Of a stretch of DNA of 39,656 nt, positions 3,113 through 36,578 are shown piece after piece (the stretch's first letter is position 1; each line of letters starts with the position of its first letter). The position numbers were made by a program, and so were the translations under genes. This stretch comes from Kayfunavirus AN17P1. The notes below the pieces were generated by a model that was given only the letters and a program-made list of their open reading frames with translations, was not told the DNA's origin and did no database searches. The stretch lies in the sequence record OZ035755.1. The stretch is one strand, 5' to 3'.

Positions 3113-3136
3113 ACTTAACTATCACTATAGGGAAGA
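3113..3136 (+). promoter_or_regulatory. Phage RNAP promoter (phiOR-like, right end)
   Basis: TTAACTATCACTATAGGGAAG matches the 11-member consensus CTAAACTATCACTATAGGGA; +1 G at about 3130. Confidence 0.75.
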
Positions 3137-3315
3137 CCCCCGGTTACTTATAGTATTACTGTAGTGAATATACATATGCAGACTTTATTCAAGACCTTAG
3201 GAGGCAGACTCCGAGTTCTTACCTAAGGCTTGCACCGATGGAAGGAGGGTGATATTAATCATAATCCCTCCAATACAGATAGTCACCGACCATAGATACA
3301 GGAGGTATGTAGCAT

Positions 3316-3474
3316 ATGGCAAAGACCAAAGCTGTACTTAAAGCTCTGGCGACCAATCGAGCTACATACAGGTTTCTTGCTGCTGTTCTACTTGCTGCTG
3401 GCGTTACTGCTGGAAGTCAGTGGGTCGGGTGGGTCGAGACTCTCGTATGTTCTCTGGTCTCTCAGTGTAATTAA
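3316..3474 (+). CDS. Small membrane protein, 52 aa (gene 19.5 position)
   Basis: ATG with SD ACAGGAGG; translation MAKTKAVLKALATNRATYRFLAAVLLAAGVTAGSQWVGWVETLVCSLVSQCN has one hydrophobic helix; below the 60-aa track cutoff so read directly from sequence. Confidence 0.45.
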   Translation: MAKTKAVLKALATNRATYRFLAAVLLAAGVTAGSQWVGWVETLVCSLVSQCN

Positions 3475-3510
3475 CGCAATCATGATAACAATCAACGAAA
3501 GGAGGTAGGG

Positions 3511-3579
3511 ATGGACGAGGAGTCTTATGGGCCGTTCTCTGACGAAGATTATCAGACGGAGTGGGAATACGCGCATTGA
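3511..3579 (+). CDS. Very small acidic ORF, 22 aa (MDEESYGPFSDEDYQTEWEYAH)
   Basis: ATG preceded by SD AAAGGAGG at good spacing; no other support. Confidence 0.25.
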   Translation: MDEESYGPFSDEDYQTEWEYAH

Positions 3580-3583
3580 AGAC

Positions 3584-3624
3584 CTAAGGTCAGTTCATAG
3601 CTGACGCTACTCTACTGACCTTAG
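3584..3624. repeat. Inverted repeat CTAAGGTCAGT / ACTGACCTTAG (11-bp stem, 19-nt loop) near the right genome end
   Basis: Exact reverse-complement arms at 3584-3594 and 3614-3624; no downstream U-tract. Confidence 0.45.
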
Positions 3625-3699
3625 CTACTGTAGTCAAGGACTTTAGGTAACACCTTAATAGAAGCTCACTTAGGGTCATCCTACTTATTGGTCTATCCT

Positions 3700-4100
3700 A
3701 GTGTCGCCTGACCTACGGTCCTTGACCTACAGTAGCTGCCACCTACAGTATTCGATGAGTTTTGGACCAAAAGTTTGAGACCACATCTCACAGTTCAAGA
3801 ACCTCAAGTCTCCCCATAGGCCCTCTTTCAGTCCAGACCAAAGGCCCTACCCCAGTCTATCATAAGGTTAGACCGATGGTCAAGACTTCAGGTCAACGAT
3901 AGGTTGTGGCTATGGCTTAGGGAAGGACGATAGGTAGGGACTATTGGTCTGTCTTTGAGTCTCTATCTGTATCAGACCTTGAGTCACTACCTACAGTCTA
4001 ACTACCTACAGTCTAACTACCTACAGTCTAACTACCTACAGTCATCGACCATCGGTAATGCCGCTACCTACAGTCAGAGACCTACGGTTAATAGACACAA
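3700..4100. repeat. Genome terminus region: putative direct terminal repeat flanked by CCTAC(A/G)GT short repeats
   Basis: TCTCACAGTTCAAGAACC...CCCCATAGG at 3786 resembles the T7 (TCTCACAGTGTACGG) and T3 left-end sequences as I recall them; repeated GACCTACGGT / CACCTACAGT motifs on both sides mirror the CCTAAAG arrays flanking the T7 terminal repeat; no CDS. Repeat length cannot be read from a collapsed assembly. Confidence 0.5.
3986..4044. repeat. Tandem array, about 3.9 copies of 15-bp unit ACTACCTACAGTCTA
   Basis: Exact copies at 3986-4000, 4001-4015, 4016-4030 and a partial copy at 4031-4044. Confidence 0.9.
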
Positions 4101-4340
4101 GGCTATAGACTTAAGGTCTAAGACATGTTAGTCAAAGACTACATCCTCTTACACCATGGGGCCGACGATAGCTTAATCAATATTATTTCAAATTACCTAT
4201 TGACTATAGGTCCAGATTATGGCCTAATAGCTTCCGTCAACACGACACGGCAACAACCGGATAGTGAAGACGCCTGGTCATCCCGGTTAAGTAGACAGCC
4301 TGATAAGTCATACGAACAACAGGCAGATGACAGAAAGTAG

Positions 4341-4378
4341 TTGACAAGCAGTAACGATAAGATGTAAGCTGTACCACA
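4341..4378 (+). promoter_or_regulatory. Host sigma70 early promoter candidate (T7 A2/A3-like)
   Basis: Perfect -35 TTGACA (4341-4346), about 18-nt spacer, -10 TAAGCT, then GTACCACAT as in T7 A3 (TACGAT-GTACCACAT) as I recall it; about 200 nt upstream of the first early gene. Confidence 0.5.
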
Positions 4379-4486
4379 TCAAAACAACGGTGACGACCGA
4401 CACTGAAACGGTCTACCTGAAGTCCTCTGACTGAAGGGAATGCTCTTTAACAATCTGGATAAACTCTTAATGTGCGCCGATAGCGA

Positions 4487-4543
4487 CTAACTACAGGGTC
4501 TTTGAGTCTACATCTGAAGGCCCTGACTGATAGTCACTAACAA
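4487..4543 (+). promoter_or_regulatory. Conserved leader element, copy 1 (TAACTACAGGGTC ... CCTGACTGATAGTCACTAA), possible RNase III / translation-initiation leader
   Basis: Shares a 19-nt exact block CCTGACTGATAGTCACTAA and a TAACTACAGG(G)TC block with 4842-4892; ends about 17 nt before the start codon at 4560; small CAGGG/CCCTG stem. Confidence 0.5.
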
Positions 4544-4559
4544 CCTAAGAGGATTCATT

Positions 4560-4838
4560 ATGAGACTGAACAAAGCTACAGCAGAAGCCTTTCGCAAGGA
4601 GCTTGAATCAAGATTATTGTGTGGAGTGGCGGAAGGAGCCGCTCGATATAAAGAGAATGGTCTAACGTTCAAGCGCTTTATGTGGGATTGCTATCACGGA
4701 GTGGGCCATAAAAAGTTGCAGGAAATAATCACCAGCAACAATGCAGAAGTGCAAGTGATAGGAGGATATATGGCTAACGTGAAGGATTCACACATCGAGA
4801 CCATGCTTAAGAATGCACTTAACGATGTAGCCTACTAG
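4560..4838 (+). CDS. Hypothetical early protein, 92 aa; first gene to enter the cell, upstream of ocr
   Basis: SD AAGAGG before ATG; uninterrupted ORF; sits behind a copy of the same leader element as ocr; no recognisable family. Confidence 0.6.
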   Translation: MRLNKATAEAFRKELESRLLCGVAEGAARYKENGLTFKRFMWDCYHGVGHKKLQEIITSNNAEVQVIGGYMANVKDSHIETMLKNALNDVAY

Positions 4839-4841
4839 TGA

Positions 4842-4892
4842 TTAACTACAGGTCGTTAGACTGATAGCGGCCTGACTGATAGTCACTAAAAC
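4842..4892 (+). promoter_or_regulatory. Conserved leader element, copy 2, upstream of ocr
   Basis: Contains CCTGACTGATAGTCACTAA (4871-4889) and TTAACTACAGGTC; paralogous to 4487-4543. Confidence 0.5.
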
Positions 4893-4918
4893 ATACTTAA
4901 CTTTGAGAGGATATAACT

Positions 4919-5251
4919 ATGGAACGTAACGCTAACGCATACTATGAGCTGCTGGCTGCAACCGTTGAAGCATTTAACGAGCGTATTCAGTACGACGAAA
5001 TAGCTGAAGGCGATGACTACCACGATGCGCTGCATGAAGTCGTAGACGGTCAGGTTCCGCACTATTACCACGAGATTTTCACGGTGATGGCTGCTGATGG
5101 TATTGACCATGAGTTTGAAGACTCTGGGCTGATGCCTGATACCAAGGATGTGACGCGTATACTGCAAGCTCGCATCTATGAGGCGCTTTATAACGACGTG
5201 GCTGATAGCTTGGATGTAGTCTGGTTTGAGGCTGAAGAGGGAGACGAGTGA
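4919..5251 (+). CDS. gene 0.3 (ocr): Ocr (T7 gp0.3 homolog), DNA-mimic anti-restriction protein, 110 aa
   Basis: Translation ...[46 protein letters not shown]... is closely similar to T7 Ocr as I recall it ([45 protein letters not shown]); acidic C-terminus. Confidence 0.9.
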
Positions 5252-5406
5252 TGGTAACTTACGGTCTCTGTCAGCATCACGTCACCAACGCCCGGAGTAT
5301 GGTCAAGACCGGGCAATTAAACCACGATGCGACTATGCGTCACCTGAAAGCGGTCTATGAGGGCCACAAGCGCATACACGACAGTTTGCACGCTGAGGAT
5401 AAGTAA
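5251..5406 (+). CDS. gene 0.4: Small early protein, 51 aa, T7 gp0.4-like (FtsZ inhibitor family)
   Basis: ATGA start/stop overlap with ocr; translation [51 protein letters not shown] shares length and YGL...LKxxYExxKxI pattern with T7 gp0.4 as I recall it. Confidence 0.45.
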   Translation: MVTYGLCQHHVTNARSMVKTGQLNHDATMRHLKAVYEGHKRIHDSLHAEDK

Positions 5407-5519
5407 CGTGTATCATAGCCTGACCATAACGCTGACAGGTGGGTACTGAGTGATAGATGAGAGGTCATCGACTGATAGGTGGCCTCAAAGATTACCACTT
5501 GAATTAATAGGAGTTAACT

Positions 5520-5609
5520 ATGAGTGTGGGATATTGGGTCTGCCTAGCGCCAGTTATCTGGATGATAGGCTATGGGTTATACGACTGTATTAAACGGAAA
5601 TCACTATGA
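5520..5609 (+). CDS. Small hydrophobic ORF, 29 aa
   Basis: ATG after TAGGAG; translation MSVGYWVCLAPVIWMIGYGLYDCIKRKSL; stop overlaps the next ORF start. Confidence 0.25.
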   Translation: MSVGYWVCLAPVIWMIGYGLYDCIKRKSL

Positions 5610-5803
5610 GTCTTGCACTATTGATAGCAATAGGCTATGGACTTATCGCCTACGTGCTGGTGAGTGACATTAACAAGGCGCGTAAAGTCTACAAATTCAA
5701 CTATGTACGTCTGGGCCGCTGGACCGTACGTCAACCTAACGGACGATTCATGCGCAACCTAGCGAACGTATGGGATATAGCAACCTTAGGGAGCAAACTG
5801 TAA
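5606..5803 (+). CDS. Early membrane protein, 65 aa
   Basis: N-terminal TM segment (LALLIAIGYGLIAYVLV); position equivalent to the T7 0.5/0.6 region. Confidence 0.45.
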   Translation: MSLALLIAIGYGLIAYVLVSDINKARKVYKFNYVRLGRWTVRQPNGRFMRNLANVWDIATLGSKL

Positions 5804-5853
5804 TGCGCAATACTTGTAGCAAGCGCACTCAAATATCTTCAGGAGAATAAGTA

Positions 5854-6075
5854 ATGAATATAATTAAGGCAGCCACGGAGTCTATTAGCGCCATATTCCT
5901 ACCACGGCAAGAGGTATGTACCTCCCACAAGTTCATACTATCTTGCGTTGTCGGCGACGAGTTTGATGGTTTTGATAAGCTCGTTGTATGTGATTATTGT
6001 GGTCAAGAAGCTATACAGCACTCAAACGGTAAATTCGAACTAATTAACGAGGAAGGGGACGGCGATGGTGAATAA
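5854..6075 (+). CDS. Early Cys-containing protein, 73 aa; N-terminus resembles the start of T7 gp0.7
   Basis: SD CAGGAGAATAAGTA-ATG; N-terminus MNIIKAATESISAIFLP resembles T7 gp0.7 MNITDIMNAIDAIKALP as I recall it; four Cys including CDYC; far too short for a kinase. Confidence 0.45.
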   Translation: MNIIKAATESISAIFLPRQEVCTSHKFILSCVVGDEFDGFDKLVVCDYCGQEAIQHSNGKFELINEEGDGDGE

Positions 6076-6358
6076 CAAAAACAACGTATTTGGATACTTG
6101 GTGACAGGCTACCGACACGGAACCTCAAGTCACACCGCACGTCAACAGCAGGAGCGTGACAGGGTACTGCAAGCAAGACTCCGAGCTGAGGGCCATAAGT
6201 CCGAACTGTTGTGTCTGGCGTATGGTGGACGACCAATCACTGATGATGGTAAACTTCTGGTCTCAGGCTGGAAGGCGATAGACCAACGGTCAACCATCAA
6301 GCACACGACCCATGGTGACTTCAGCCATCTTCACGCTAACCCACTGATATGCAAGTGA
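6065..6358 (+). CDS. Hypothetical early protein, 97 aa
   Basis: ORF overlapping the previous stop; last gene before RNAP; no family recognised. Confidence 0.45.
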   Translation: MVNNKNNVFGYLVTGYRHGTSSHTARQQQERDRVLQARLRAEGHKSELLCLAYGGRPITDDGKLLVSGWKAIDQRSTIKHTTHGDFSHLHANPLICK

Positions 6359-6363
6359 TTCTG

Positions 6364-6387
6364 ACTTAACTATCACTATAGGACTCA
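6364..6387 (+). promoter_or_regulatory. Phage RNAP promoter upstream of the RNAP gene
   Basis: CTTAACTATCACTATAGGACTC fits the consensus; +1 G about 6381, 75 nt before the gene 1 ATG. Confidence 0.65.
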
Positions 6388-6455
6388 AGGTCTAAGACTC
6401 CAAGTGAAAGACCAAAGAGACTTTAAGTGAAAGACTAATAACAAGGACTTTAAGT

Positions 6456-9137
6456 ATGAGCGTCATCTCTATTGACAAACACGACTTCTCTGATGTGTCG
6501 AACGCCATTGAGCCGTTTAACCTGCTGGCTGACCACTACGGGCAAGACCTTGCAGTCAAACAGCTTCAGCTGGAGCACGAGGCATACACTGAAGGCGAGC
6601 GACGTTTCATCAAAAACCTTGAGCGACAGACTGAGCGCGGGGAACTGGCAGACAATCAGGTAGCCAAGCCTTTGATGCAGACTCTGGTCCCTAAGATTGC
6701 GCAAGCCGTCAGGGAGTGGCATGAAGGTCCAGACGGGAAGCTGTCAACCTCTCGTCCGAGCGTAGCGTTCACCATGTTAAGCACTGAAGAGAAGGCCGTC
6801 AAGGACCGCTCTCTTCGCATCTCCTGCGAGTCTGCTGCGGTTATCATACTGAAGGTCATCCTATCCAAGCTGGTCAAACCTGAAGGTATACCGATTACAC
6901 CGATGGCCTCCGCGATAGGTCGCACACTTGAGGATGAAATCCGATTCGGTCGCATTCGTGACAAGGAGAAGGAGCACTTCAAGAAGGCGATAGCTGATAA
7001 CCTGAACAAGAGAGCCGGGGCATCATACAAGAAAGCCTACATGCAAGCGGTCGAGACATCCATGCTGGAGCAAGGCCAACTAGAAGATGCGTGGGGAACT
7101 TGGAGTCCGACCGAGGCTGTCCACGTTGGAATCAAGATGCTGGAGATTGTCATCCAGTCAACACAACTGGTCGAGCTTAAGCGTTACGGTGCTGGCAATG
7201 CAGCGGCTGACGTTGAGATGGTCCACCTGTCAGACTTCTGGGTCAAGAAGATGACACAACGCGGCTTCAGCCTTGCGGGTATCGCTCCAGTCTACCAACC
7301 TTGCGTAGTTCCACCTAAGCCGTGGACTGGTGTCGTAGGCGGTGGGTACTGGGCCAAAGGTCGCAGACCATTACCACTGATTCGCTTAGGGTCTAAGTCT
7401 GCGGTGGCACGTTACGAAGACGTGTATATGCCTGAAGTCTATGACGCTGTTAACATAATCCAGAATACACCTTGGAAAGTGAACAAGAAGGTTCTGGACG
7501 TGGTGAACATGGTCGAGAAGTTGAACAACACGCCTATTGATGACATCCCTCAGATGGAGCCACTGAAGCCTGAAGAATATGCGGGTGAGACTGAAGAGGA
7601 ACTCAAGGCGTGGAAGAAAGCGGCTGCTGGTATCTATCGCCGCGAGAAGGCCAGACAGTCACGCAGATTGTCGCTGAGCTTTATCGTTAACCAAGCGAAC
7701 AAGTTCTCTCAGTTCAAGACCATCTGGTTCCCGTATAACATGGACTGGCGCGGTCGCGTCTACGCTGTGCCGATGTTCAACCCTCAGGGTAACGACATGC
7801 AAAAGGGTCTCCTGACTCTGGCAGTCGGTAAGCCTATTGGTGCTGATGGTTTCAAATGGCTGAAGGTCCACGGTGCAAACTGTGCGGGTGTCGATAAAGT
7901 AACCTTCGAGGAGCGCATCAAGTGGGTGGAAGATAACCACGACAACATCATGGCTACCTCTAAGGCACCGATGGACAGCATTGAGTGGTGGGGAAAGTTA
8001 GACTCTCCGTTCTGCTTCCTAGCGTTCTGCTTCGAGTATGCCGGCGTAATGCATCACGGATTGTCTTACTCCTGCTCGCTGCCGATAGCTTTCGATGGGT
8101 CCTGCTCTGGGATTCAGCACTTTAGCGCGATGCTTCGTGATCACATCGGTGGACATGCAGTAAACCTGACGCCTTCCGGTAAGGTCCAAGACATCTACCG
8201 CATCGTGTCTGACCGCATTGAGGAAGAGCTTAAAGTCCTGCTGGTTAACGGCACGGACAACGAGATGGTAACTCACGAGGACAAGAAAACTGGTGAGATT
8301 ACCGAACGTCTCAAGCTGGGGACACGAGAGCTGGCCCGGCAGTGGCTGACTTACGGTATGTCACGCAAGGTTACTAAGCGCTCAGTCATGACTCTGGCCT
8401 ATGGGTCGAAAGAGTACGGCTTTGCAGACCAAGTTTATGAGGACATCGTGATGCCAGCGATTGACTCAGGGTCTGGCGCTATGTTCACTGAACCAAGCCA
8501 AGCGTCCTGCTTCATGGCTAAGATGATTTGGGAAGCTGTGAGTGTGACCGTAGTTGCTGCGGTTGACGCGATGAAGTGGCTTCAAGGTGCTGCCAAGCTG
8601 CTGGCGGCTGAAGTGAAGGACAAGAAGACTGGAGAAATCCTGAAGCCTTGCCTTCCGGTACACTGGGTCACACCTGATGGGTTCCCGGTCTGGCAGGAAT
8701 ACCGCAAGAAGGATACCACTCGTCTGAACCTGATGTTCTTAGGGTCATTCAACCTTCAGCCTACCGTCAACAAAGGCACGAAGAAGGAGTTGGATAAGCA
8801 CAAGCAGGAGTCAGGAATTAGCCCGAACTTCGTCCACTCACAAGATGGTAGCCATCTCCGCAAGACTGTAGTCCACACTCACCGTAAGTATGGCGTGATG
8901 TCGTTCGCAGTGATTCACGATAGCTTCGGGACCATCCCGGCTGACGCTGAATATCTGTTCCGTGGTGTCCGTGAGACGATGGTCGAGACCTACCGCGATA
9001 ACGATGTGCTGCTTGACTTCTACGAGCAGTTTGAATACCAACTTCATGAGAGCCAGCGCGACAAGTTGCCTGAGCTTCCGAAGAAAGGTAAACTGAATAT
9101 TGAGGACATTCTATCTTCAGACTTTGCATTCGCTTAA
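6456..9137 (+). CDS. gene 1: T7-type single-subunit DNA-dependent RNA polymerase, 893 aa
   Basis: Collinear similarity to T7 RNAP as I recall it (AIWFPYNMDWRGRVYAV, HGANCAGVDK, SPFCFLAFCFEYAG, SCSGIQHFSAMLRD, IHDSFGT, C-terminal FAFA). Confidence 0.97.
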   Translation: MSVISIDKHDFSDVSNAIEPFNLLADHYGQDLAVKQLQLEHEAYTEGERRFIKNLERQTERGELADNQVAKPLMQTLVPKIAQAVREWHEGPDGKLSTSRPSVAFTMLSTEEKAVKDRSLRISCESAAVIILKVILSKLVKPEGIPITPMASAIGRTLEDEIRFGRIRDKEKEHFKKAIADNLNKRAGASYKKAYMQAVETSMLEQGQLEDAWGTWSPTEAVHVGIKMLEIVIQSTQLVELKRYGAGNAAADVEMVHLSDFWVKKMTQRGFSLAGIAPVYQPCVVPPKPWTGVVGGGYWAKGRRPLPLIRLGSKSAVARYEDVYMPEVYDAVNIIQNTPWKVNKKVLDVVNMVEKLNNTPIDDIPQMEPLKPEEYAGETEEELKAWKKAAAGIYRREKARQSRRLSLSFIVNQANKFSQFKTIWFPYNMDWRGRVYAVPMFNPQGNDMQKGLLTLAVGKPIGADGFKWLKVHGANCAGVDKVTFEERIKWVEDNHDNIMATSKAPMDSIEWWGKLDSPFCFLAFCFEYAGVMHHGLSYSCSLPIAFDGSCSGIQHFSAMLRDHIGGHAVNLTPSGKVQDIYRIVSDRIEEELKVLLVNGTDNEMVTHEDKKTGEITERLKLGTRELARQWLTYGMSRKVTKRSVMTLAYGSKEYGFADQVYEDIVMPAIDSGSGAMFTEPSQASCFMAKMIWEAVSVTVVAAVDAMKWLQGAAKLLAAEVKDKKTGEILKPCLPVHWVTPDGFPVWQEYRKKDTTRLNLMFLGSFNLQPTVNKGTKKELDKHKQESGISPNFVHSQDGSHLRKTVVHTHRKYGVMSFAVIHDSFGTIPADAEYLFRGVRETMVETYRDNDVLLDFYEQFEYQLHESQRDKLPELPKKGKLNIEDILSSDFAFA

Positions 9138-9153
9138 TAACAGGAGAGACAAC

Positions 9154-9428: not shown

Positions 9429-9429
9429 C

Positions 9430-9453
9430 CCTAAACTATCACTATAGGATTAG
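9430..9453 (+). promoter_or_regulatory. Phage RNAP promoter (phi1.1-like)
   Basis: CCTAAACTATCACTATAGGATTA; consensus match. Confidence 0.75.
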
Positions 9454-9492: not shown

Positions 9493-9525
9493 ACCCTAAA
9501 TAAACACTACTGGAGATTTAACCGT

Positions 9526-9705: not shown

Positions 9706-9709
9706 CTCT

Positions 9710-9967: not shown

Positions 9968-9971
9968 CACA

Positions 9972-11234: not shown

Positions 11235-11273
11235 AACCCAGTGGTCTTAGGACTGCTGGGTTTCTTTGCTTCT
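11235..11273 (+). terminator. Putative rho-independent early terminator (TE-like)
   Basis: Stem AACCCAG / CTGGGTT (11235-11241, 11256-11262) followed by TCTTTGCTTCT; lies after the ligase block, where T7 has TE. Confidence 0.4.
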
Positions 11274-11289: not shown

Positions 11290-11313
11290 CCTAAGCTATC
11301 ACTATAGGACAAC
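11290..11313 (+). promoter_or_regulatory. Phage RNAP promoter
   Basis: CCTAAGCTATCACTATAGGACAA; consensus match. Confidence 0.7.
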
Positions 11314-12104: not shown

Positions 12105-12259
12105 CTGACGTAGAGAAGAAGTACATCGTGGAGCTTGAGGGTCGCATTCAGTCCTTCGAGGTTCCGGTGTACGCAAAGTCTCTTGAAGAGGCTACCCTGA
12201 AGTCCCAAGAGTATGAGGACGCTGGGTTTGTGGTCGGACGGATTCGCCCTGAGACCTAA
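12101..12259 (+). CDS. gene 2: Gp2, inhibitor of host RNA polymerase, 52 aa
   Basis: [52 protein letters not shown] matches the T7 Gp2 core (HSFEVPIYAETLDEA...AGFEVTRVRP) as I recall it; below the track cutoff. Confidence 0.8.
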
Positions 12260-12278
12260 ACTATCACTGTAGGACAGA
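12255..12278 (+). promoter_or_regulatory. Phage RNAP promoter, variant (TGTAGG instead of TATAGG)
   Basis: CCTAAACTATCACTGTAGGACAG; one mismatch in the TATA element; 40 nt before the SSB gene. Confidence 0.6.
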
Positions 12279-14429: not shown

Positions 14430-14645
14430 ATGATTAAACTTATCGAATTTCTTGGTCGTCTGGTGGTGCGTGGTTATCGTCGTGCTGCGGTTATGGAACG
14501 AAAGGTAGCAGAGAAGACTGCCGATGGTGCGGCTGATGCTGCTGCTCTGGCTGACAAGCTGACCATCGCGTCACTGGAAGCTGGCATGAAGGCGCGTCAG
14601 GCTGACACCAAAGCCGACCAGTTGTCTCAGTTCTTCAAAGCCTAA
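14430..14645 (+). CDS. Hypothetical Ala-rich small protein, 71 aa
   Basis: ORF between lysozyme and primase-helicase; helical low-complexity sequence; weak SD. Confidence 0.45.
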   Translation: MIKLIEFLGRLVVRGYRRAAVMERKVAEKTADGAADAAALADKLTIASLEAGMKARQADTKADQLSQFFKA

Positions 14646-14664
14646 ACTATCACCTTAGGGATGG
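14641..14664 (+). promoter_or_regulatory. Phage RNAP promoter, degenerate variant (CACCTTAGGG)
   Basis: CCTAAACTATCACCTTAGGGATGG; two mismatches in the -5 to -2 region; 50 nt before gene 4. Confidence 0.4.
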
Positions 14665-16630: not shown

Positions 16631-16677
16631 GTCTAGACTCAAGGTCATTCACATCGAGTGGCCTTTATGATTAGACT
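16631..16677 (+). promoter_or_regulatory. Conserved stem-loop, putative RNase III site upstream of the DNA polymerase gene
   Basis: GTCTAGACTCAAGGTCATTCACATCGAGTGGCCTTTATGATTAGAC; third member of the family at 294-346 and 9451-9492. Confidence 0.4.
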
Positions 16678-16693
16678 AAACGGAGGATTAACC

Positions 16694-18865
16694 ATGTTTG
16701 ACCTTAAGAGTATCTGGGGTTCTGACATCGAGACCAACGGTCTCCTTGATACAGTCTCCAAGTTCCACTGTGGGGTCCTGATTAACGCCGAGTCGAATGA
16801 GACCCTTAAGTATGGGGTAGCTCCGATGGTCGGTATCGTCGGTGGCTTCAAAGAGTATGTACAGAAGGTGGAAGAAATTGCTGCAACGCCTACGGGTATG
16901 CTGGTCTTCCATAACGGTATCAACTATGACGTCCCGGCTATTGACAAGCTGAAGCGTTTGTACTTTGGGAAACGATTTAACTTCCCGAAACACAAGATGA
17001 TTGATACCTTGGTGCTGGGCCGCTTGATGTATCCAAACATTAAGTTCTCAGACATGGGCGCGGTGAAAGCTGGTCGTCTGCCCCATAAGATGATGGGACG
17101 CCAGTCTCTTGAGGCTTGGGGCTATCGTCTAGGTGAGATGAAGGGTGAGTACAAACACGATTACGTTGCCAAGTGCAAGGCTGAAGGTATCGAATATAAG
17201 GCTGGGGACGAATGGTTGTTCCCATCTCAGGAGATGCTAGACTATAACGTTCAAGACGTTGTGGTCACACTGGCGTTGTTCAAGAAGTTCCTGACTGACA
17301 AGTATTACTTCCAGTCTGAACAGCTCGCTTTCGACCAGATTTATGCGTTGCGTCTGGAACATGATGCTGCGTGGACCTGTGCGAAGATGGAACGTAACGG
17401 ATATCCGATGAACACCGAGATGGTCGAAGGATTATATCGTGAACTCACCGTCAAACGTGCAGAGTTGTTGGACAAGCTGCGTTCGACTTTCGGTAGCTGG
17501 TACGCACCAAAGGGAGGCAAGGAGTTCTTCAAGCACCCACGGACAGGCAAGGACCTTCAGAAGTATCCGCGAGTCGTGTATCCTAAGGTCGGGTCAGTAT
17601 TCAAGAAGCCGAAGAACAAAGCTCAACGCTTAGGTATTGAACCTTGTGAACGCGATACGCGAGACACGATGGAAGGAGCACCGTTCACGCCAATCACTTA
17701 CGTTGAGTTTAATCCGGGAAGCGGAGACCACTTAGCGAAAGTCTTGATGGAGCGTGGTTGGGAGCCTGTGGACTTCACTGACACTGGGAAACCTGTAGTT
17801 GATGACGAGACGTTAGAACACGTTAAGTTACCAGACGCAGAGGCTCAGGCTTGCGTAGAGCTGGTCCGTGAGTATCTGGTAGTCCAGAAGAGAATCGGGC
17901 AGGCTGCTGAAGGTAAGAACGCATGGTTGAAACTTGTAGGTCCAGACGGACGTATGCACGGTTCAATCAACCCTTGTGGAGCAGTAACAGGACGTGCGAC
18001 CCATAGTTCACCAAACATGGCTCAGGTCCCGGCTAACGGTGCTCCGTATGGTGAGACTTGCCGTGGTGCTTTCGGTGCAGCGTGGAACAAGAAGGACGGT
18101 AAGCCAGACCCTTGGATTCAAGTAGGCGTGGATGCTTCAGGTCTTGAGCTTCGTTGTCTGGGGAACCGAGCGGCTCCGTTTGATGGTGGAGATTATGCGA
18201 AGACTGTGGTCGAAGGTGACATACACTGGGCAAACGCAGTCAACGCTGGGTTAGCACCTAACGTCCCACGCGACAAGTCGAGCCATGACCACGATGCTTT
18301 CCGTAATAACGCCAAGACGTTCATCTATGCGTTCCTGTATGGTGCAGGGGCCGCGAAGATTGGACTGATAGTTGGTGGTGGTAAGAAGGAAGGTGCGGCC
18401 CTGATGAAGAAATTCATTGAGGGTACACCAGCTATCAAGGACCTGCGAGAGGCTGTGCAGAACACGCTCATCTCAGAGTCGAAGTGGGTAGATGGTGAGA
18501 ACATCGTGAAGTGGAAACGTCGCTGGCTGAAAGGTCTGGATGGTCGCAGAATTCACATCCGGTCACCACACTCAGCACTTAACGCCCTACTTCAGGGTGA
18601 TGGTGCGGTTGTCTGTAAGCACTGGATGGTACTGACTGAGAAGAAACTTGAAGAGGCTGGTTACGGTAACGGATGGGACGGTGACTTTGCGCTAATGGCT
18701 TGGATTCACGATGAATTGCAGATAGCGTGCCGTACTCAGGAGATAGCAGAAGATGTCGTCCGTATTGCTCAAGAGGCGATGCGCGAGGTCGGACGCTTCT
18801 ATAACTTCAAGTGTGAACTTGATACGGAGGGTAAGATTGGACCAACGTGGAAAGAGTGTCATTGA
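16694..18865 (+). CDS. gene 5: DNA polymerase (T7 gp5 homolog), 723 aa
   Basis: Start MFDLKS... with SD ACGGAGG; collinear T7 gp5 motifs as I recall them (DIETNGLLDTVSKFHCGV, NVQDVVVT exonuclease site, AKTFIYAFLYGAG, HDELQIACR). Confidence 0.96.
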   Translation: MFDLKSIWGSDIETNGLLDTVSKFHCGVLINAESNETLKYGVAPMVGIVGGFKEYVQKVEEIAATPTGMLVFHNGINYDVPAIDKLKRLYFGKRFNFPKHKMIDTLVLGRLMYPNIKFSDMGAVKAGRLPHKMMGRQSLEAWGYRLGEMKGEYKHDYVAKCKAEGIEYKAGDEWLFPSQEMLDYNVQDVVVTLALFKKFLTDKYYFQSEQLAFDQIYALRLEHDAAWTCAKMERNGYPMNTEMVEGLYRELTVKRAELLDKLRSTFGSWYAPKGGKEFFKHPRTGKDLQKYPRVVYPKVGSVFKKPKNKAQRLGIEPCERDTRDTMEGAPFTPITYVEFNPGSGDHLAKVLMERGWEPVDFTDTGKPVVDDETLEHVKLPDAEAQACVELVREYLVVQKRIGQAAEGKNAWLKLVGPDGRMHGSINPCGAVTGRATHSSPNMAQVPANGAPYGETCRGAFGAAWNKKDGKPDPWIQVGVDASGLELRCLGNRAAPFDGGDYAKTVVEGDIHWANAVNAGLAPNVPRDKSSHDHDAFRNNAKTFIYAFLYGAGAAKIGLIVGGGKKEGAALMKKFIEGTPAIKDLREAVQNTLISESKWVDGENIVKWKRRWLKGLDGRRIHIRSPHSALNALLQGDGAVVCKHWMVLTEKKLEEAGYGNGWDGDFALMAWIHDELQIACRTQEIAEDVVRIAQEAMREVGRFYNFKCELDTEGKIGPTWKECH

Positions 18866-18896
18866 CCATCGAACCCAGACCCTACGCTTCCATACC

Positions 18897-19172
18897 ATGC
18901 CTACCGGATGTATCGTCTGCGTGTCCCACAAGAGGAACCAAGATGGGTACTTCCGGTACTCCATGGGAAGCTACAGGAAGGGCAACAAGTTCGCCTTCAT
19001 GTTCCACCGATGGGTGTGGGAGCAGAAGCGCGGACCTATACCAAATGGCTACGAGATAGACCATTTATGCTTGAACCGTGGGTGCTGCAGCATAGAGCAT
19101 CTACAGTGTATTCCAAAACGCGAACACGTCATTAAGACGAACCGTGAGCGCAAACTTGTTAAGAAGGAGTAA
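18897..19172 (+). CDS. HNH endonuclease, 91 aa from ATG 18897
   Basis: HRWVWEQKRGPIPNGYEIDHLCLNRGCCSIEHLQCIPKREH is an HNH motif with Cys zinc ligands; the in-frame ORF opens at 18753 inside the polymerase gene, so the start is uncertain and no clear SD precedes 18897. Confidence 0.65.
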   Translation: MPTGCIVCVSHKRNQDGYFRYSMGSYRKGNKFAFMFHRWVWEQKRGPIPNGYEIDHLCLNRGCCSIEHLQCIPKREHVIKTNRERKLVKKE

Positions 19173-19177
19173 CCACA

Positions 19178-19462
19178 ATGGCTATGACCAAACGTATGCG
19201 AGTAAGTTTTGACCTGAAGATGGTTGTTAGCTCAAAGGAAGAAGAGACCATGTGTTGCCAACTAGCTGAGATTACTAAAGCCTACGCTGGTGGTGAGAAG
19301 CTGGACGGACTTCAGTTGGCTATGGTCAAAGCAGCTATTGAGTTAGGACCTGAGTCTGCTCTTGAGCTGGCACTGAAGAAGGCCCTCAAGGAGGTGATTG
19401 TGGAGGGGTTCGATGGAGACCAGTTCAATGTCTCCAACTTCCGCTTCGAGGTGAAACGATGA
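19178..19462 (+). CDS. gene 5.5: gp5.5 homolog (H-NS-binding protein family), 94 aa
   Basis: N-terminus MAMTKRMRVSFD versus T7 gp5.5 MAMTKKFKVSFD as I recall it; SD AAGGAG. Confidence 0.8.
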   Translation: MAMTKRMRVSFDLKMVVSSKEEETMCCQLAEITKAYAGGEKLDGLQLAMVKAAIELGPESALELALKKALKEVIVEGFDGDQFNVSNFRFEVKR

Positions 19463-20657: not shown

Positions 20658-20681
20658 ACTAAACTATCACTATAGGGACTT
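20658..20681 (+). promoter_or_regulatory. Phage RNAP promoter (phi6.5-like)
   Basis: CACTAAACTATCACTATAGGGACT; consensus match. Confidence 0.8.
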
Positions 20682-21917: not shown

Positions 21918-23486
21918 ATGGCTGAACGTGAAGGGTTCGCTGCTGAAGGAGCCAAAGCGGTCTATGACCGACTGAAGAACGGTAGACAGCCATATGAGAC
22001 ACGCGCTCAGAACTGTGCTGCTGTCACTATCCCGTCACTGTTTCCTAAGGAGTCAGACAACTCATCTACTGAGTATACCACTCCGTGGCAATCCGTAGGT
22101 GCTCGCTGCTTGAACAACTTGGCTGCAAAGCTGATGTTGGCGTTATTCCCTCAGTCACCATGGATGAGACTGACAGTCTCCGAATATGAGGCAAAGACCT
22201 TGAGTCAGGACTCAGAGGCCGCTGCTCGTGTTGACGAAGGGCTGGCTATGGTCGAGCGGGTGTTGATGGCCTACATGGAGACTAACAGTTTCCGTGTCCC
22301 ATTGTTCGAGGCCTTGAAGCAGCTTATCGTCTCCGGTAACTGTCTGCTCTACATCCCTCCTCCAGAACAAGGAACCTACAGTCCTATGCGGATGTACCGC
22401 TTAGTGTCTTACGTTGTTCAACGTGATGCGTTCGGTAACATCTTGCAGATTGTGACTCTCGACAAGGTAGCGTTTAGTGCTCTACCTGAAGACGTGAAGT
22501 CTCAACTCAATGCAGACGACTATGAGCCTGACACCGAGCTGGAAGTGTATACGCACATCTACCGTCAGGACGACGAGTATCTGCGCTACGAGGAAGTGGA
22601 AGGAATTGAGGTAACAGGTACCGATGGTTCATATCCTCTGACCGCATGTCCATACATCCCGGTACGAATGGTTCGACTGGACGGTGAAGACTACGGTCGT
22701 TCTTACTGCGAGGAGTATCTGGGAGACCTGAACTCGCTGGAGACGATTACAGAAGCTATCACCAAAATGGCTAAGGTAGCCTCCAAGGTGGTGGGCCTCG
22801 TTAACCCGAACGGCATCACGCAACCTCGACGTCTGAACAAGGCGGCTACAGGTGAGTTCGTGGCTGGTCGCGTTGAGGACATCAACTTCCTGCAACTGAC
22901 GAAAGGTCAGGACTTTACGATTGCCAAGTCGGTGGCTGACGCTATCGAGCAACGTTTAGGCTGGGCCTTCCTTCTTAATAGTGCTGTTCAGCGTAATGCC
23001 GAGCGAGTCACTGCTGAAGAGATTCGTTATGTTGCTGGAGAACTGGAGGCGACCTTAGGTGGCGTGTACTCAGTGCAGTCACAGGAGCTTCAGTTGCCTA
23101 TCGTCCGTGTGCTGATGAACCAGCTTCAGTCTGCTGGCATGATTCCTGACCTTCCGAAAGAAGCGGTAGAACCTACTGTCTCCACTGGTCTGGAAGCGTT
23201 AGGTCGTGGTCAAGACTTAGAGAAGCTGACTCAGGCAGTCAACATGATGACCGGGCTACAGCCTCTGCAACAGGACCCAGACATTAACTTGCCTACCCTG
23301 AAGCTGCGACTGCTGAATGCCTTAGGTATTGACACTGCTGGCTTGCTGCTGACCCAGGACGAGAAGTTGCAACGTATGGCTGAACAATCCGCTCAAGGAG
23401 CTGTGGTCAACGGTGCGTCTGCTGCTGGTGCTAACATGGGAGCTACTGTTGGACAAGTAGCTGGTGAGGACGTGGCTCAAGCCTAA
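21918..23486 (+). CDS. gene 8: Portal (head-tail connector) protein (T7 gp8 homolog), 522 aa
   Basis: Extensive collinear similarity to T7 gp8 as I recall it (YETRAQNCA, YRLVSYVVQRDAFGN, VRMVRLDGEDYGRSY, GLVNPNGITQPRRL, AEEIRYVA). Confidence 0.96.
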   Translation: MAEREGFAAEGAKAVYDRLKNGRQPYETRAQNCAAVTIPSLFPKESDNSSTEYTTPWQSVGARCLNNLAAKLMLALFPQSPWMRLTVSEYEAKTLSQDSEAAARVDEGLAMVERVLMAYMETNSFRVPLFEALKQLIVSGNCLLYIPPPEQGTYSPMRMYRLVSYVVQRDAFGNILQIVTLDKVAFSALPEDVKSQLNADDYEPDTELEVYTHIYRQDDEYLRYEEVEGIEVTGTDGSYPLTACPYIPVRMVRLDGEDYGRSYCEEYLGDLNSLETITEAITKMAKVASKVVGLVNPNGITQPRRLNKAATGEFVAGRVEDINFLQLTKGQDFTIAKSVADAIEQRLGWAFLLNSAVQRNAERVTAEEIRYVAGELEATLGGVYSVQSQELQLPIVRVLMNQLQSAGMIPDLPKEAVEPTVSTGLEALGRGQDLEKLTQAVNMMTGLQPLQQDPDINLPTLKLRLLNALGIDTAGLLLTQDEKLQRMAEQSAQGAVVNGASAAGANMGATVGQVAGEDVAQA

Positions 23487-23505
23487 ACTATCACTATAGG
23501 AACAC
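23482..23505 (+). promoter_or_regulatory. Phage RNAP promoter (phi9-like)
   Basis: CCTAAACTATCACTATAGGAACA; overlaps the portal stop codon. Confidence 0.75.
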
Positions 23506-24490: not shown

Positions 24491-24514
24491 ACTAAACTAT
24501 CACTATAGGGAGAC
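24491..24514 (+). promoter_or_regulatory. Phage RNAP promoter (phi10-like), best consensus match
   Basis: ACTAAACTATCACTATAGGGAGACC; only copy with the full TATAGGGAGA initiation region; about 100 nt before the capsid gene. Confidence 0.85.
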
Positions 24515-25934: not shown

Positions 25935-25938
25935 TTGA

Positions 25939-25977
25939 AACCCCTTGGGTGCCTTCGGGTGCTTGAGGGGTTTTTTG
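25939..25977 (+). terminator. T-phi-like terminator hairpin
   Basis: AACCCCTTGGGTGCC-TTCG-GGTGCTTGAGGGGTTTTTTG: G-U-containing stem plus U-tract, resembling T7 T-phi (AACCCCTTGGGGCCTCTAAACGGGTCTTGAGGGGTTTTTTG) as I recall it; immediately after the capsid region. Confidence 0.75.
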
Positions 25978-29261: not shown

Positions 29262-29311
29262 AAGGGCCTATAGATTTACCTTAACTATCACTATAGGGAC
29301 TATAGGCCCTT
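29262..29311. repeat. Perfect 12-bp inverted repeat AAGGGCCTATAG / CTATAGGCCCTT enclosing the phi13 promoter core
   Basis: Arms at 29262-29273 and 29300-29311 are exact reverse complements; the 26-nt loop holds TTAACTATCACTATAGGGA. Confidence 0.6.
29279..29302 (+). promoter_or_regulatory. Phage RNAP promoter (phi13-like)
   Basis: CCTTAACTATCACTATAGGGACT; consensus match. Confidence 0.75.
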
Positions 29312-30373: not shown

Positions 30374-30384
30374 GAGGAGGACTA

Positions 30385-32667: not shown

Positions 32668-32671
32668 CATA

Positions 32672-35600
32672 ATGGCGACTCGTGGTATTCGCAATAACAA
32701 TCCGGGGAACATCCGGGTAAGTAAGGACCAATGGGAAGGAATGACTGGAGATGATGGCGCATTCGTCACCTTCGATAGTCCAGAGTCTGGCGTCCGAGCT
32801 TTAGGTAAAAACCTGCTGTCCTACGGTCGCCAAGGTTATGACTCCATCGAGAAGATTATCAACAGGTGGGCACCTCCTAACGAGAACGACACTCAGGCTT
32901 ATATTGACTCAGTGGTGGCTGCGACTGGTATTCCAGCTACCCAGAGTCTCGACCTCTCGGACCCGGACACCCTGTCTTCTCTGGCGCAAGCTATCAGCTT
33001 CCATGAGACAGGCTCCCGGTACGACCCTGAAGTCTATCAACAGGGAGTCGCAAGAGCACTCAACGGTATCAGCCCAAAGACTCCACCAGTAAGCGCTAAC
33101 GTATTTGACGCACTCACGGAAGGACTCAAAGCTAAACCTAAAGTAGCTCTGGGCGAGAACCTCCCGACCGCTGCTGGTCTGAACATTGAGGGTCAAGCAC
33201 CTGAAGCTCCCAACGAATCGTTCGGTGAGATGTTCTATAAAGCTACTGGCGAGACCATGCAGGAACGAGAGGACCGCTCTACGTGGTTCGGTTTCGGTGC
33301 GGCTACAGAAGCTGAAGTGAAGAACTCTATGGTCGGCGTGGCTATCCGCGCTGGTAAGACCGAGGACTCACTGGATGTCATTGGTGATGTGTTCAACCCG
33401 ACCAGATGGAACAACCATAAGTGGTCTCGTGAGGAGCTGGACCAGATTCGTAACGCTGGGGTTCTGCCTCAGTATTATGGGGTAATTACTGGTGGGTCTC
33501 CTCAGAACCTGACCGAGCTTATTAACTTGGCTCTTGAGAACCAGAAGTTGGACCAAGAGAAGGCCAAGGCTGGGACTGGTGCTCAGTTAGCTGCTGGTGT
33601 GATTGGTGCTGGTGTAGACCCTCTGACATACGTTCCTATCGCTGGACAGGTTGGTAAAGGTGGTAAGCTGGTCAATAAGATGTTCACCGTGGCTGCTCAA
33701 TCTGGAGCACTGGCTGGTGTGTCCGAGATGGCCCGTACCTCAGTGGTTGGTGGTGATGCTCATGTGGCTGAAGCTATCCTTGGTGGTGCTCTCTTCGGTG
33801 GTGGTATGACTGCTATCGCCGATGGGTTAGGCAGAGCCTTAGGCCGCAACACTAATGAGTTCGCTGGCCCAGCTACACGTCTGGAAGCTCGTGAGACTGC
33901 TCGTAACGTTGATGGTCAGGACCTATCTCGTCTACCTATTCAGGAAGGTGAGCAGACCTTTAGTCATCAAGGTGTTAAGTTCGCAGACGTTCCGAACGAG
34001 CCGGGTAGTGTACGACTGGAAGATGGTTCAATCCTGATTGGTGAGAACCCTCTGAACCCTAAGACACGTCAGGTCTTTGACGAAGTGATTGAGCCTGAAC
34101 GTGCCGCTGCTGGTGTGAACCTTGGTGGTCTTACTGAGATTGGCCTGAAGCTGCTTCGGTCTGAGAACCCTGAGATTCGTGGAGTAGCTGCTGACTTAGT
34201 GCGTTCACCGACTGGTATGCAGTCTGGGGCCTCAGGTAAAATCGGGACAACTGCGTCAGACGTGTTCGAGAGACTTCGTGCTGTGGACCATCGGTTCTAC
34301 AACGACATCGACGATGCGGTTACTGAGGCGCTCAAGGACCCATACTTCCAGACAGCATTCTGGCGAGACTCTGGCGCATTCCGTCAGGACATCTACCAGC
34401 GTGTGTCTATGGCTATCGAAGATGGTAGTGGGAACCTGAAGGCTGAACTAACTCCGGGAGAACTGAAAGTCTATGACCTACTGAAGAACCAGTTCGACGC
34501 CAAGCGTGAGATGATGGAGAACCCAGCGATGTTTGGTCGTCCAGACGCTCAGTCTATCTTTCCGGGTAGCCGCTTCAAGGGAACCTACGTCCCGCATGTG
34601 TATAGCAAACAGATGAAGGAGCTGTACATCAAGGAGCTTGGAAGTCCAGAGGCACTACAGGAGGCCATCAAGAAGTCATGGTTGACCAGCTATGCGTCTC
34701 GACCTGAGGTCAAGAAACGTGTGGACGAGGCACTATTAGAGGCTTACCCTACGTTGACTCCAGAAGGACTTGCGGCTGCGGTCGATAAGTACGCCAACGA
34801 TAAGGCTTATGGTATCTCTCACACCGAGCAGTTCGAGCGTTCATCCGTAATGGAGGAGAACATCAACGGGCTGGTGGGTCTGGAGAACAACAGCTTCCTT
34901 GAGGCTCGTAACCTGTTCGATAGCGATATGTCAATCGTTCTTCCTAACGGTCAGACCTTCAGTGTCAACAACCTGCGTGAGTGGGACATGGACAAGATTG
35001 TCCCGGCCTACAACCGTCGAGTTAATGGTGATATTGCTATCATGGCTGGTACAGGCAAGACAACGAAGGGAATGAAGGACTTAGTTGAGACCATGATGAA
35101 CAAGGCTGGTGATGACGGAAAGTTGAAAGGTGAAGTATCTACCTTACGTGACACCCTGAAGATTCTCACTGGTCGTGCTCGACGTGATGGTGCTGATGAT
35201 GTGGCCTTCGCTACCGTGATGCGCACTATGACAGACCTATCGTTCTTCGCTAAGAATGCCTACATGGGTGTTCAGAACTTAACGGAGATTGGTGGTATGC
35301 TGGCTCGTGGTAACGTTCGTGCACTGCTACACGGAGTACCGATGTTCCGTGACCTAGCCTTCCGTAACAAGAAGGTCGGGGCCGCAGAGATTAAGGACCT
35401 GCACAATGTTATCTTTGGTAAGGAACTGGACGACTCAATCCGTCCGTCTAAACAGGATGTTATCGACCGTCTGCGATCTTACAGTGACCTAGGTCGCGGG
35501 GCCGCTACAGCTCTGGGGACTGCCAAGTATTACACTGGTGAGCTTGTAGTACGCTCTCCGTTCACTAAAGTCCTCAACGGCACGACCAACTACCTGTTAG

Positions 35601-36559
35601 ATGCTGGACGTCAGGGATTCCTGTCTGACATCGTGGAGCATAGTCTGACTGGCAGTAAGCGTCGGTTCGATGACCGCTGGCTTAAGACCGCTGGTATATC
35701 TGACGAGCAGTGGAAGGGCATTAAGTCCCTAATCCGTGAGTCAGTGACTCGTGGTCCAGACGGGAAGTACACCATCAAGGATAAGAAGGCGTTCAGTCAG
35801 GACCCAAGGGCTATGGACCTGTGGCGTATGGGTGACACCATCGCTGACGAAACGTTACTCCGGCCCCACAAGCTGTCAAACATGGACGCCAAGGCTTATG
35901 GTCCTCTCGCTAAGACTGTCCTTCAGTTTAAGAACTTCGTCATCAAGTCTATCAATGGGAGAACCATGCGAACCTTCTATAACGCCACGAAGAACAACAG
36001 AGCGATTGACGCTGCACTGTCGACCGTGATGTCTATGGGTCTGGCTGGTATCTACTACATGGCTCAGGCGCATGTCAAGGCTTATGCTATGCAGGATGGT
36101 CGAGACAGTGACTACCTTAAGCAAGCTCTGGACCCAACGATGATTGGCTATGCGGCCCTGTCCCGTAGTTCACATCTTGGTGGCCCACTTGGGGTAGCTA
36201 ACATTCTGGGAGGCATCGCTGGATATGAGGACACTAAGATGCTCCGTTCGTCTATCCTACCTCGTTCGCCTACAGAGAAGCCTGAGCGTGCCATCGCGTA
36301 TGGTGCAGCTACAAGTGACCCTGTGATGAATGTTGTTGGTAACTTCTTGGAGCAGGTTCCAGCTTTCGGATATGCTGCTAACGTTGGCGCTTCGGCTTAC
36401 AACTTGGCTGGCTACCTCAAGGCTGATACTCGTGTCAACGAGCGTGACTACATGACCGGGATGTATAATACGTTCCGTGAACTGGTTCCGAACGACCCCA
36501 TTACCCAGAAGCTGCTGCTTGGAACGTTTGAGGAGCAAGGCATCCACATCAAGGACTAA
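32672..36559 (+). CDS. gene 16: Internal virion protein D with N-terminal lytic transglycosylase domain (T7 gp16 homolog), 1295 aa
   Basis: Long collinear similarity to T7 gp16 as I recall it (VDPLTYVP, RLEARETARN, RSPTGMQSGASGK, YGISH..QFERSS, GLENNSFLEARNLFDSD, NRRVNGDIAIMAGTGKTTK, MDLWRMGD, RAIDAALS); the N-terminal roughly 150 aa fit a peptidoglycan hydrolase domain. Confidence 0.95.
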   Translation: MATRGIRNNNPGNIRVSKDQWEGMTGDDGAFVTFDSPESGVRALGKNLLSYGRQGYDSIEKIINRWAPPNENDTQAYIDSVVAATGIPATQSLDLSDPDTLSSLAQAISFHETGSRYDPEVYQQGVARALNGISPKTPPVSANVFDALTEGLKAKPKVALGENLPTAAGLNIEGQAPEAPNESFGEMFYKATGETMQEREDRSTWFGFGAATEAEVKNSMVGVAIRAGKTEDSLDVIGDVFNPTRWNNHKWSREELDQIRNAGVLPQYYGVITGGSPQNLTELINLALENQKLDQEKAKAGTGAQLAAGVIGAGVDPLTYVPIAGQVGKGGKLVNKMFTVAAQSGALAGVSEMARTSVVGGDAHVAEAILGGALFGGGMTAIADGLGRALGRNTNEFAGPATRLEARETARNVDGQDLSRLPIQEGEQTFSHQGVKFADVPNEPGSVRLEDGSILIGENPLNPKTRQVFDEVIEPERAAAGVNLGGLTEIGLKLLRSENPEIRGVAADLVRSPTGMQSGASGKIGTTASDVFERLRAVDHRFYNDIDDAVTEALKDPYFQTAFWRDSGAFRQDIYQRVSMAIEDGSGNLKAELTPGELKVYDLLKNQFDAKREMMENPAMFGRPDAQSIFPGSRFKGTYVPHVYSKQMKELYIKELGSPEALQEAIKKSWLTSYASRPEVKKRVDEALLEAYPTLTPEGLAAAVDKYANDKAYGISHTEQFERSSVMEENINGLVGLENNSFLEARNLFDSDMSIVLPNGQTFSVNNLREWDMDKIVPAYNRRVNGDIAIMAGTGKTTKGMKDLVETMMNKAGDDGKLKGEVSTLRDTLKILTGRARRDGADDVAFATVMRTMTDLSFFAKNAYMGVQNLTEIGGMLARGNVRALLHGVPMFRDLAFRNKKVGAAEIKDLHNVIFGKELDDSIRPSKQDVIDRLRSYSDLGRGAATALGTAKYYTGELVVRSPFTKVLNGTTNYLLDAGRQGFLSDIVEHSLTGSKRRFDDRWLKTAGISDEQWKGIKSLIRESVTRGPDGKYTIKDKKAFSQDPRAMDLWRMGDTIADETLLRPHKLSNMDAKAYGPLAKTVLQFKNFVIKSINGRTMRTFYNATKNNRAIDAALSTVMSMGLAGIYYMAQAHVKAYAMQDGRDSDYLKQALDPTMIGYAALSRSSHLGGPLGVANILGGIAGYEDTKMLRSSILPRSPTEKPERAIAYGAATSDPVMNVVGNFLEQVPAFGYAANVGASAYNLAGYLKADTRVNERDYMTGMYNTFRELVPNDPITQKLLLGTFEEQGIHIKD

Positions 36560-36578
36560 ACTATCACTATAGGAAACG
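36555..36578 (+). promoter_or_regulatory. Phage RNAP promoter (phi17-like)
   Basis: GACTAAACTATCACTATAGGAAAC; overlaps the gp16 stop. Confidence 0.75.

Follow-up and report, generated by a model that had tools for sequence, protein, structure and literature searches.

The RNA polymerase specificity loop and the eleven predicted promoters of Kayfunavirus AN17P1 match those of phage K1F

The window analysed here is the whole 39,656-nucleotide stretch of DNA deposited for Kayfunavirus AN17P1 (OZ035755.1), and its subject is the phage's single-subunit, T7-type RNA polymerase (RNAP, the product of gene 1) together with eleven repeated sites that would serve as the promoters of this enzyme. The polymerase and its promoters belong, almost certainly, to the specificity class already known from phage K1F. 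The specificity hairpin is the same as that of K1F (N748, N756 and Q758, together with S754 and V761, in T7 numbering), the promoters carry ACTAT at positions -12 to -8, and they agree with those of K1F in number and placement. The -12 to -8 bases are unlike those of all four of T7, T3, K11 and SP6, and the pair does not fall into any of these specificity groups. An earlier reading of the same DNA (the original prediction) had proposed a distinct, potentially orthogonal promoter specificity; the pair is, however, already known: its characterisation, and its use as a tool for orthogonal expression, date back to 2012. As a discovery the result thus matters little: the consensus, the loop and the largely orthogonal specificity are those of K1F, a standard part in synthetic biology. 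Its practical value lies in annotation, that of a close relative of AN24P4 within Kayfunavirus in which eleven promoters can be named, along with two terminators and a terminal repeat present in single copy.

The promoter set

A search of the window with the core ACTATCACTATAGG, allowing up to two mismatches, returned exactly 11 sites, all of them on the + strand, as compared with 0.24 expected by chance; none of 100 shuffled sequences reached this number. Relaxing the search to three mismatches added merely two matches, both unconvincing. The core matches start at positions 3118, 6369, 9435, 11295, 12260, 14646, 20663, 23487, 24496, 29284 and 36560. Eight are exact, and the remaining three carry one or two mismatches, i.e., a G at -12 (11295), a G at -3 (12260), and a C at -4 together with a T at -3 (14646). 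The eleven sites of the original prediction are thus confirmed, and the positions given there (3113, 12255, 14641 and 36578) are the -17 and about the +6 positions of core sites. The number of promoters with mismatches, previously put at two, has to be raised to three.

The position matrix of the 11 aligned sites, from -17 to +6, amounts to approximately 32 bits. Positions -16, -15, -13, -11 to -5 and -2 to +2 are invariant, and position -12 is occupied by A in all sites except one, such that ACTAT at -12 to -8 is followed by a T7-like core, CACTATAGG. In the GGGA of the proposed consensus, position +3 is close to a tie between A (six sites) and G (five sites). Every site is either intergenic or located at the 3' end of a gene and, with the exception of the phiOR equivalent, the next large open reading frame (ORF) begins 35-583 nucleotides downstream.

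Taken as promoters of the phage's own polymerase, the eleven sites would be arranged on the T7 plan: phiOR, one promoter just before gene 1 and one after it, three class II promoters that contain non-consensus bases, and, before genes 6.5, 9, 10, 13 and 17, five promoters of class III, with a Tphi-like terminator following the capsid gene. All class III sites, the phiOR equivalent and the two sites flanking gene 1 possess a perfect core. The phiOR equivalent (3113-3135, +1 at 3130; K1F ortholog at 38857) is situated downstream of the gene for the terminase large subunit, about 650 base pairs (bp) before the terminal repeat. The predicted promoter after gene 1 (9430-9452, +1 at 9447) occupies the position of T7 phi1.1 and T3 phi1.05, and its orthologs are found at 5557 in K1F and in the annotated promoter of Ro45lw at 5483-5505. 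Among the class III sites, phi6.5 (20658-20680, +1 at 20675) corresponds to K1F 17182 and to a Ro45lw site annotated as phi6.5, phi13 (29279-29301, +1 at 29296) to K1F 25326, and phi17 (36555-36577, +1 at 36572), which precedes the tailspike gene, to the site at which Ro45lw annotates phi17. The phi9 site extends from 23482 to 23504 (+1 at 23499). The phi10 site (24491-24513, +1 at 24508), before the major capsid gene, is the sole site with a full GGGAGA initiation region and is the same as T7 phi10 from -8 to +6. Both phi9 and phi17 overlap gene ends, as the TAA at -15 to -13 doubles as the stop codon of gene 8 (23484-23486) and of gene 16 (36557-36559), respectively.

The RNA polymerase and its specificity loop

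Gene 1 (6456-9137, + strand) encodes a protein of 893 amino acids, the entire length of which aligns with residues 1-883 of T7 RNAP (1269 bits). Its Pfam matches, RNA_pol (PF00940, 355.9 bits) and RPOL_N (PF14700, 54.7 bits), both exceed the respective cut-offs. The catalytic residues D537, K631, Y639 and D812 are conserved, and the motifs AFDGSCSG, VTKRSVMTLAYGS and IHDSFGT are intact; residues are given here in T7 numbering, to which ten is added for the window enzyme.

The coding segment of the specificity loop (8715-8816, + strand; TTRLNLMFLGSFNLQPTVNKGTKKELDKHKQESG), equivalent to T7 residues 744-777, is the same as in K1F. The loop quoted in the original prediction, LMFLGSFNLQPTVNKGTKKELDKHKQESG, is encoded exactly in gene 1, the T7 loop quoted for comparison proved exact in the alignment with T7 RNAP, and the promoter cores given for T7, T3, K11 and SP6 agree with the annotated records. 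With respect to T7, the hairpin and the residues just before it display the substitutions P742D, I743T, Q744T, Q754S, R756N and I761V. According to Cheetham et al., in the summary given by PMC11880802, the hydrogen-bonding residues of the T7 hairpin are R746, N748, R756 and Q758; three of these (R746, N748 and Q758) are kept in the window enzyme and the fourth, R756, is replaced by N. Of the two sets of substitutions singled out previously, FRL to FNL is this very R756N contact change, but INTNKD to VNKGTK lies outside the four contact positions. Overall, the segment that contains the loop is 75% identical to that of T7, 68% to T3, 67% to K11 and 20% to SP6.

Homology to the solved T7 complex suggests that the specificity hairpin would read the promoter's major groove at about -12 to -7. 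The key triplet at T7 positions 748, 756 and 758 would then be N/N/Q, as opposed to N/R/Q in T7, and the cognate bases at -12 to -8 would be ACTAT instead of CGACT. The TATA at -4 to -1 would be melted, and transcription would start at the first G of the GG. The promoters differ from those of T7 at -12 to -9 (ACTA here, CGAC in T7), in line with what had been claimed, but also at -17 to -14 (MCTW here, TAAT in T7), a second difference absent from the original prediction. In other respects the T7 system is similar, with the same RNAP fold, catalytic motifs, promoter length and promoter core from -8 to +2, and with class II and class III promoters, phiOR and the terminators TE and Tphi arranged alike across the genome.

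The 13-mer core has no copy in the genomes of T7, T3 and SP6. In Klebsiella phage K11, an exact 13-mer, CTATCACTATAGG, is present at 542-554, between phiOL and the first host promoter, where a chance occurrence is unlikely. We considered this K11 site as a K1F-type promoter and judged it a partial resemblance, the upstream CTAA element being missing (the sequence reads gatcACTATCAC...).

Identity with K1F and other Kayfunavirus genomes

The RNAP of K1F is identical to that of the window at 883 of 893 residues, none of the ten substitutions being located in the specificity loop, and a segment of 84 amino acids around the loop is 100% identical. Likewise, K1F contains the same 11 promoters, one for one and at the same gene positions, including the three variants. 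Three further phages, AN24P4, Ro45lw and SH4, share the promoter set. In AN24P4, all 11 promoters are the same as in the window over the compared stretches of 25 nucleotides, save for one base at +6 of phi17. Ro45lw, a member of the same genus, has an RNAP that is 94% identical and shares the contact residues; its loop differs solely by M to L at T7 position 750 and by T to S, both at non-contact positions. The promoters of Ro45lw differ from those of the window in two points: a further class II site precedes the DNA polymerase gene, and the site upstream of gene 1 is a TAAAGG variant.

Over 80 amino acids spanning the loop, at least 126 deposited phage records are at least 99% identical to the window and another 79 are 95-99% identical. 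At the level of the RNAP gene, the identity is 98.5% to AN24P4 and 95-97% to many further Kayfunavirus genomes. For yet another Kayfunavirus, a genome note of 2026 gives the consensus CTWAACTATCACTATAGG and terms the sites promoters. Enterobacter phage 04_vB_Eclo_IJM, which came up as a candidate loop variant, was discarded, since its assembly is ridden with frameshifts and contains no promoter matches.

Published function of the K1F-type pair

The function of K1F-type polymerases and promoters has been studied by several groups. Temme et al. (2012) defined hairpin subfamilies, each with its own consensus in the promoter binding region. Grafting of the K1F hairpin (T7 Q744-I761) into T7 RNAP, combined with K1F bases at -12 to -7, gave 17-fold induction, and high orthogonality against the T7, T3 and N4 types was ascribed to the polymerases. 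In the work of Segall-Shapiro et al. (2014), the K1F promoter yielded a value of 2448 with the K1FR fragment, compared with 19 for the T7 fragment and 6.7 for the T3 fragment, on a background of 5. More recently, Zhu et al. (2025, Table 2) listed the K1F graft as 754S/756N/761V with the promoter ACTAT, i.e., the residues and promoter bases that are present in the window.

Native enzymes have also been employed. In Halomonas and E. coli, full-length K1F RNAP and its promoter, P_K1F, serve as a system for expression and for targeted mutagenesis, in which the enzyme shows little crosstalk with the MmP1 and VP4 polymerases (2025 mutator paper). The P_K1F part given in the supplement of that paper, gacatggctcaagcctaaactatcactatagg, agrees in 31 of 32 bases with the phi9 promoter of the window (23469-23500), the single mismatch being upstream of the core. 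Takatsuki et al. (2025; PMC12272871) purified the RNAP of Ro45lw, mapped its +1 to G and delimited a minimal promoter, ACTTAACTATCACTATAGGGA; this 21-mer is present exactly at 3113-3133 of the window.

Several points weigh against assigning the established orthogonal behaviour to the window enzyme. Zhu et al. (2025) rated the orthogonality of the grafted set at only 8-fold, and the set of Segall-Shapiro et al. (2014) is leaky, as on the T7 promoter the K1FR fragment yielded 260, where the T7 fragment reached 6326. In both 2012 and 2014, orthogonality was measured with the K1F hairpin on a T7 scaffold (with M750R added in 2014) and not with the native protein. Moreover, the functional evidence comes from K1F, K1F grafts and Ro45lw, all of them relatives of the window enzyme; 10 residues, all outside the loop, distinguish the latter from K1F RNAP, and 54 distinguish it from the Ro45lw enzyme that was purified. 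We infer from its sequence that the window enzyme would behave identically to the K1F-type enzymes.

Among the findings that would overturn it, the original prediction had itself named a well-characterised polymerase in which this consensus and loop are already present. K1F RNAP is such a polymerase, since its loop and promoters are identical to those of the window, the K1F pair has been tested, and the related Ro45lw enzyme has been purified. The proposed specificity is indeed distinct from those of T7, T3, K11 and SP6, but the novelty that this implied does not hold.

Variant sites and alternative readings

The three sites with mismatches precede the block of middle genes, which are involved in DNA metabolism. 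The class II phi1.6 site (11290-11312, +1 at 11307), with one mismatch, contains G at -12, and the same GCTATCACTATAGG occurs in K1F, AN24P4 and Ro45lw, where it is annotated as phi1.6. The class II phi2.5 site (12255-12277, +1 at 12272), before the gene for the single-stranded DNA-binding protein, also has one mismatch, the G at -3 that produces a TGTA box; it reads ACTATCACTGTAGG in K1F, and the variant is shared by AN24P4 and by Ro45lw (annotated phi2.5). The third class II site (14641-14663, +1 at 14658), at the phi3.8/phi4 position before the primase/helicase gene, has two mismatches, C at -4 and T at -3. Its ACTATCACCTTAGG is kept in K1F, AN24P4 and SH4, and the corresponding sequence in Ro45lw is CCTAAGG.

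A division into deviating middle promoters and perfect late promoters is common to K1F, AN24P4, Ro45lw and SH4. The middle promoters of SH4 are four in number, and each departs from the consensus within the TATA box at -4 to -2. The box of phi2.5 is TGTA in four of the genomes and TTTA in SH4, so that the base varies while a non-consensus state is retained. The situation in T7 is comparable: its five class III promoters and phiOR are perfect 23-mers, whereas phiOL and the class II promoters deviate at two, three or more positions. Given this middle/late split in five Kayfunavirus genomes and in T7, the earlier suggestion that some sites may be deliberately weak is reasonable and, by analogy with T7, plausible, although it would amount to the class II/class III hierarchy that is established for T7-like phages. 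Two of the three variants affect the melting and initiation box rather than the specificity region, and would therefore alter the strength of the promoter and not its recognition. The variant class II promoters would accordingly be predicted to be the weaker ones.

It is unlikely, on the other hand, that the sites at 11295, 12260 and 14646 are decaying or non-functional copies instead of tuned weak promoters. Such decay would explain why one or two mismatches are found at otherwise invariant positions. Each of the three sites, however, occupies a conserved intergenic position before the middle-gene block and has been kept in all four of K1F, AN24P4, Ro45lw and SH4; the base itself shifts between species, as in the phi2.5 box, yet stays non-consensus, and the remainder of each 23-mer is intact. 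The class II promoters of T7 deviate in the same manner and are known from experiment to be functional.

A very improbable alternative is that the repeats are mainly non-transcriptional elements, such as replication origins, packaging signals or recombination hot spots, that merely resemble promoters. Some T7 phage promoters, phi1.1A/B, phiOL and phiOR, double as replication primers, and the sites at 3118 and 9435 occupy the positions of promoters of this kind. Nevertheless, all 11 sites are co-oriented with the genes, share the T7 core from -8 to +2 (TCACTATAGG) and are positioned directly upstream of gene blocks, and the exact sequence drives in vitro transcription by an enzyme that is 94% identical. 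The reading originally put forward, that of a new specificity absent among characterised enzymes and hence a fresh orthogonal part, draws on a loop and promoter unlike those of T7, T3, K11 and SP6 and on a core missing from T7, T3 and SP6, but is as good as refuted by the identity of the loop and promoter set with those of K1F, by the repeated testing and use of the K1F-type specificity, and by more than 200 deposited genomes that encode a segment at least 95% identical over the 80 amino acids spanning the loop.

The upstream element and the promoter before gene 1

Within the K1F class, the least ordinary points are a possible second recognition module and a promoter before the polymerase gene that is conserved in the genus. 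Upstream of the bases read by the hairpin, positions -17 to -13 are MCTWA in the window, compared with TAATA in T7; the C at -16 and the T at -15 are invariant, and the element is not AT-rich. The N-terminal loop of the polymerase, PDGKLSTSRPSV (residues 92-103, encoded at 6729-6764 on the + strand), aligns with the AT-rich recognition loop of T7 RNAP (residues 93-101) and has diverged from it. The corresponding T7 sequence is VKAK-RGKRPTA; its R96 and K98 are not kept in the window enzyme, which has an insertion of one residue. The change in the upstream element may be linked to that in the N-terminal loop.

We therefore offer, as a tentative proposal about which we remain rather doubtful, that native Kayfunavirus RNAPs would read a two-part promoter, the hairpin recognising ACTAT and the N-terminal loop recognising C-16 and T-15, and that, separately, the promoter before gene 1 would give feedback. 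The loop-graft studies retained the upstream element and the N-terminal loop of T7, and an upstream module that was not transferred could explain why the K1F graft is weak and leaky. If the proposal is true, transfer of both modules might yield a stricter orthogonal pair.

The predicted promoter before gene 1 (6364-6386, +1 at 6381) has an exact core and is located 75 nucleotides upstream of the start of the RNAP gene. All five Kayfunavirus genomes that were checked contain it, the orthologs being found at 2479 in K1F, 6260 in AN24P4, 2711 in SH4 and 2405 in Ro45lw (the TAAAGG variant mentioned above). The records of T7, T3 and K11 annotate no phage promoter at the position directly upstream of gene 1. 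Conversely, there is no phiOL-type site near the left genome end among the 11 promoter matches of the window, as opposed to T7, for which phiOL, but no phage promoter directly before gene 1, is annotated. The site before gene 1 may provide direct positive feedback on the polymerase gene, unlike in T7, T3 and K11 at that position. The 75 nucleotides of leader that separate gene 1 from the promoter at 6369 are without significant structure (z = -0.28), and for this reason no RNase III-type site is claimed.

Genome layout, terminators and neighbouring genes

As judged by genome comparison, the window comprises the whole genome, in circularly permuted form, of a K1F-like coliphage of the genus Kayfunavirus, in the T7 group (Studiervirinae). 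Its first 25 kb are about 98% identical in nucleotide sequence to Kayfunavirus AN24P4 (OZ035739.1) over 95% of their length, and divergence from AN24P4 is confined to 343-1257 and 18627-19436, both of which are accessory-gene regions. The genome alignment with K1F (NC_007456) is collinear, with 90-96% identity across most of the genome. The right end of K1F (39704) aligns to position 3963 of the window and its left end (1) to position 3786; the window is thus a circular permutation in which the direct terminal repeat, of about 178 bp (3786-3963, + strand), is present once, and the segment is indeed unique in the window. The window begins inside the lysis/packaging region, away from the physical genome ends.

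Two predicted terminators were identified, both on the + strand. A Tphi-like hairpin between the capsid gene and gene 11 (25937-25974; 17-bp stem, -25.2 kcal/mol, z = -4.0) is followed by UUUUUUG. A TE-like early terminator hairpin (11235-11262; 12-bp stem, -19.4 kcal/mol, z = -3.85) follows the ligase gene just upstream of phi1.6, in the same relative place as TE of T7. A literature search on promoter or terminator mapping in Kayfunavirus found nothing relevant. In a scan of the early region for the sigma-70 consensus, 13 matches were found versus 10.0 ± 3.5 expected; as this is not above chance, no host promoters are claimed.

Outside the polymerase and its promoters, the window differs from K1F in the body of its tailspike, in having an additional HNH gene ahead of the terminase gene, and in the lack of an HNH insertion in the DNA polymerase gene. 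The additional gene is an HNH_3 endonuclease ORF of 145 amino acids (822-1259), located between a spanin-like ORF (380-832) and the gene for the terminase large subunit (1252-3018). K1F contains no similar DNA at the same place, and the ORF, which probably represents a mobile homing endonuclease, falls in one of the two regions that diverge from AN24P4. The window has an uninterrupted DNA polymerase gene (16658-18865), whereas that of K1F is annotated as two pieces flanking an HNH endonuclease ORF; this homing endonuclease is also found in Ro45lw.

The tailspike gene (36624-39155) codes for a T7-tail N-terminal domain, a TSP1/Gp66 N domain and a C-terminal Peptidase_S74 chaperone domain. Its similarity to K1F ends near 37382, indicating that the body of the K1F endosialidase has been replaced. 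With 99.2% identity to AN24P4 and to vB_EcoP-101120B2, the gene would point to a receptor different from the K1 capsule.

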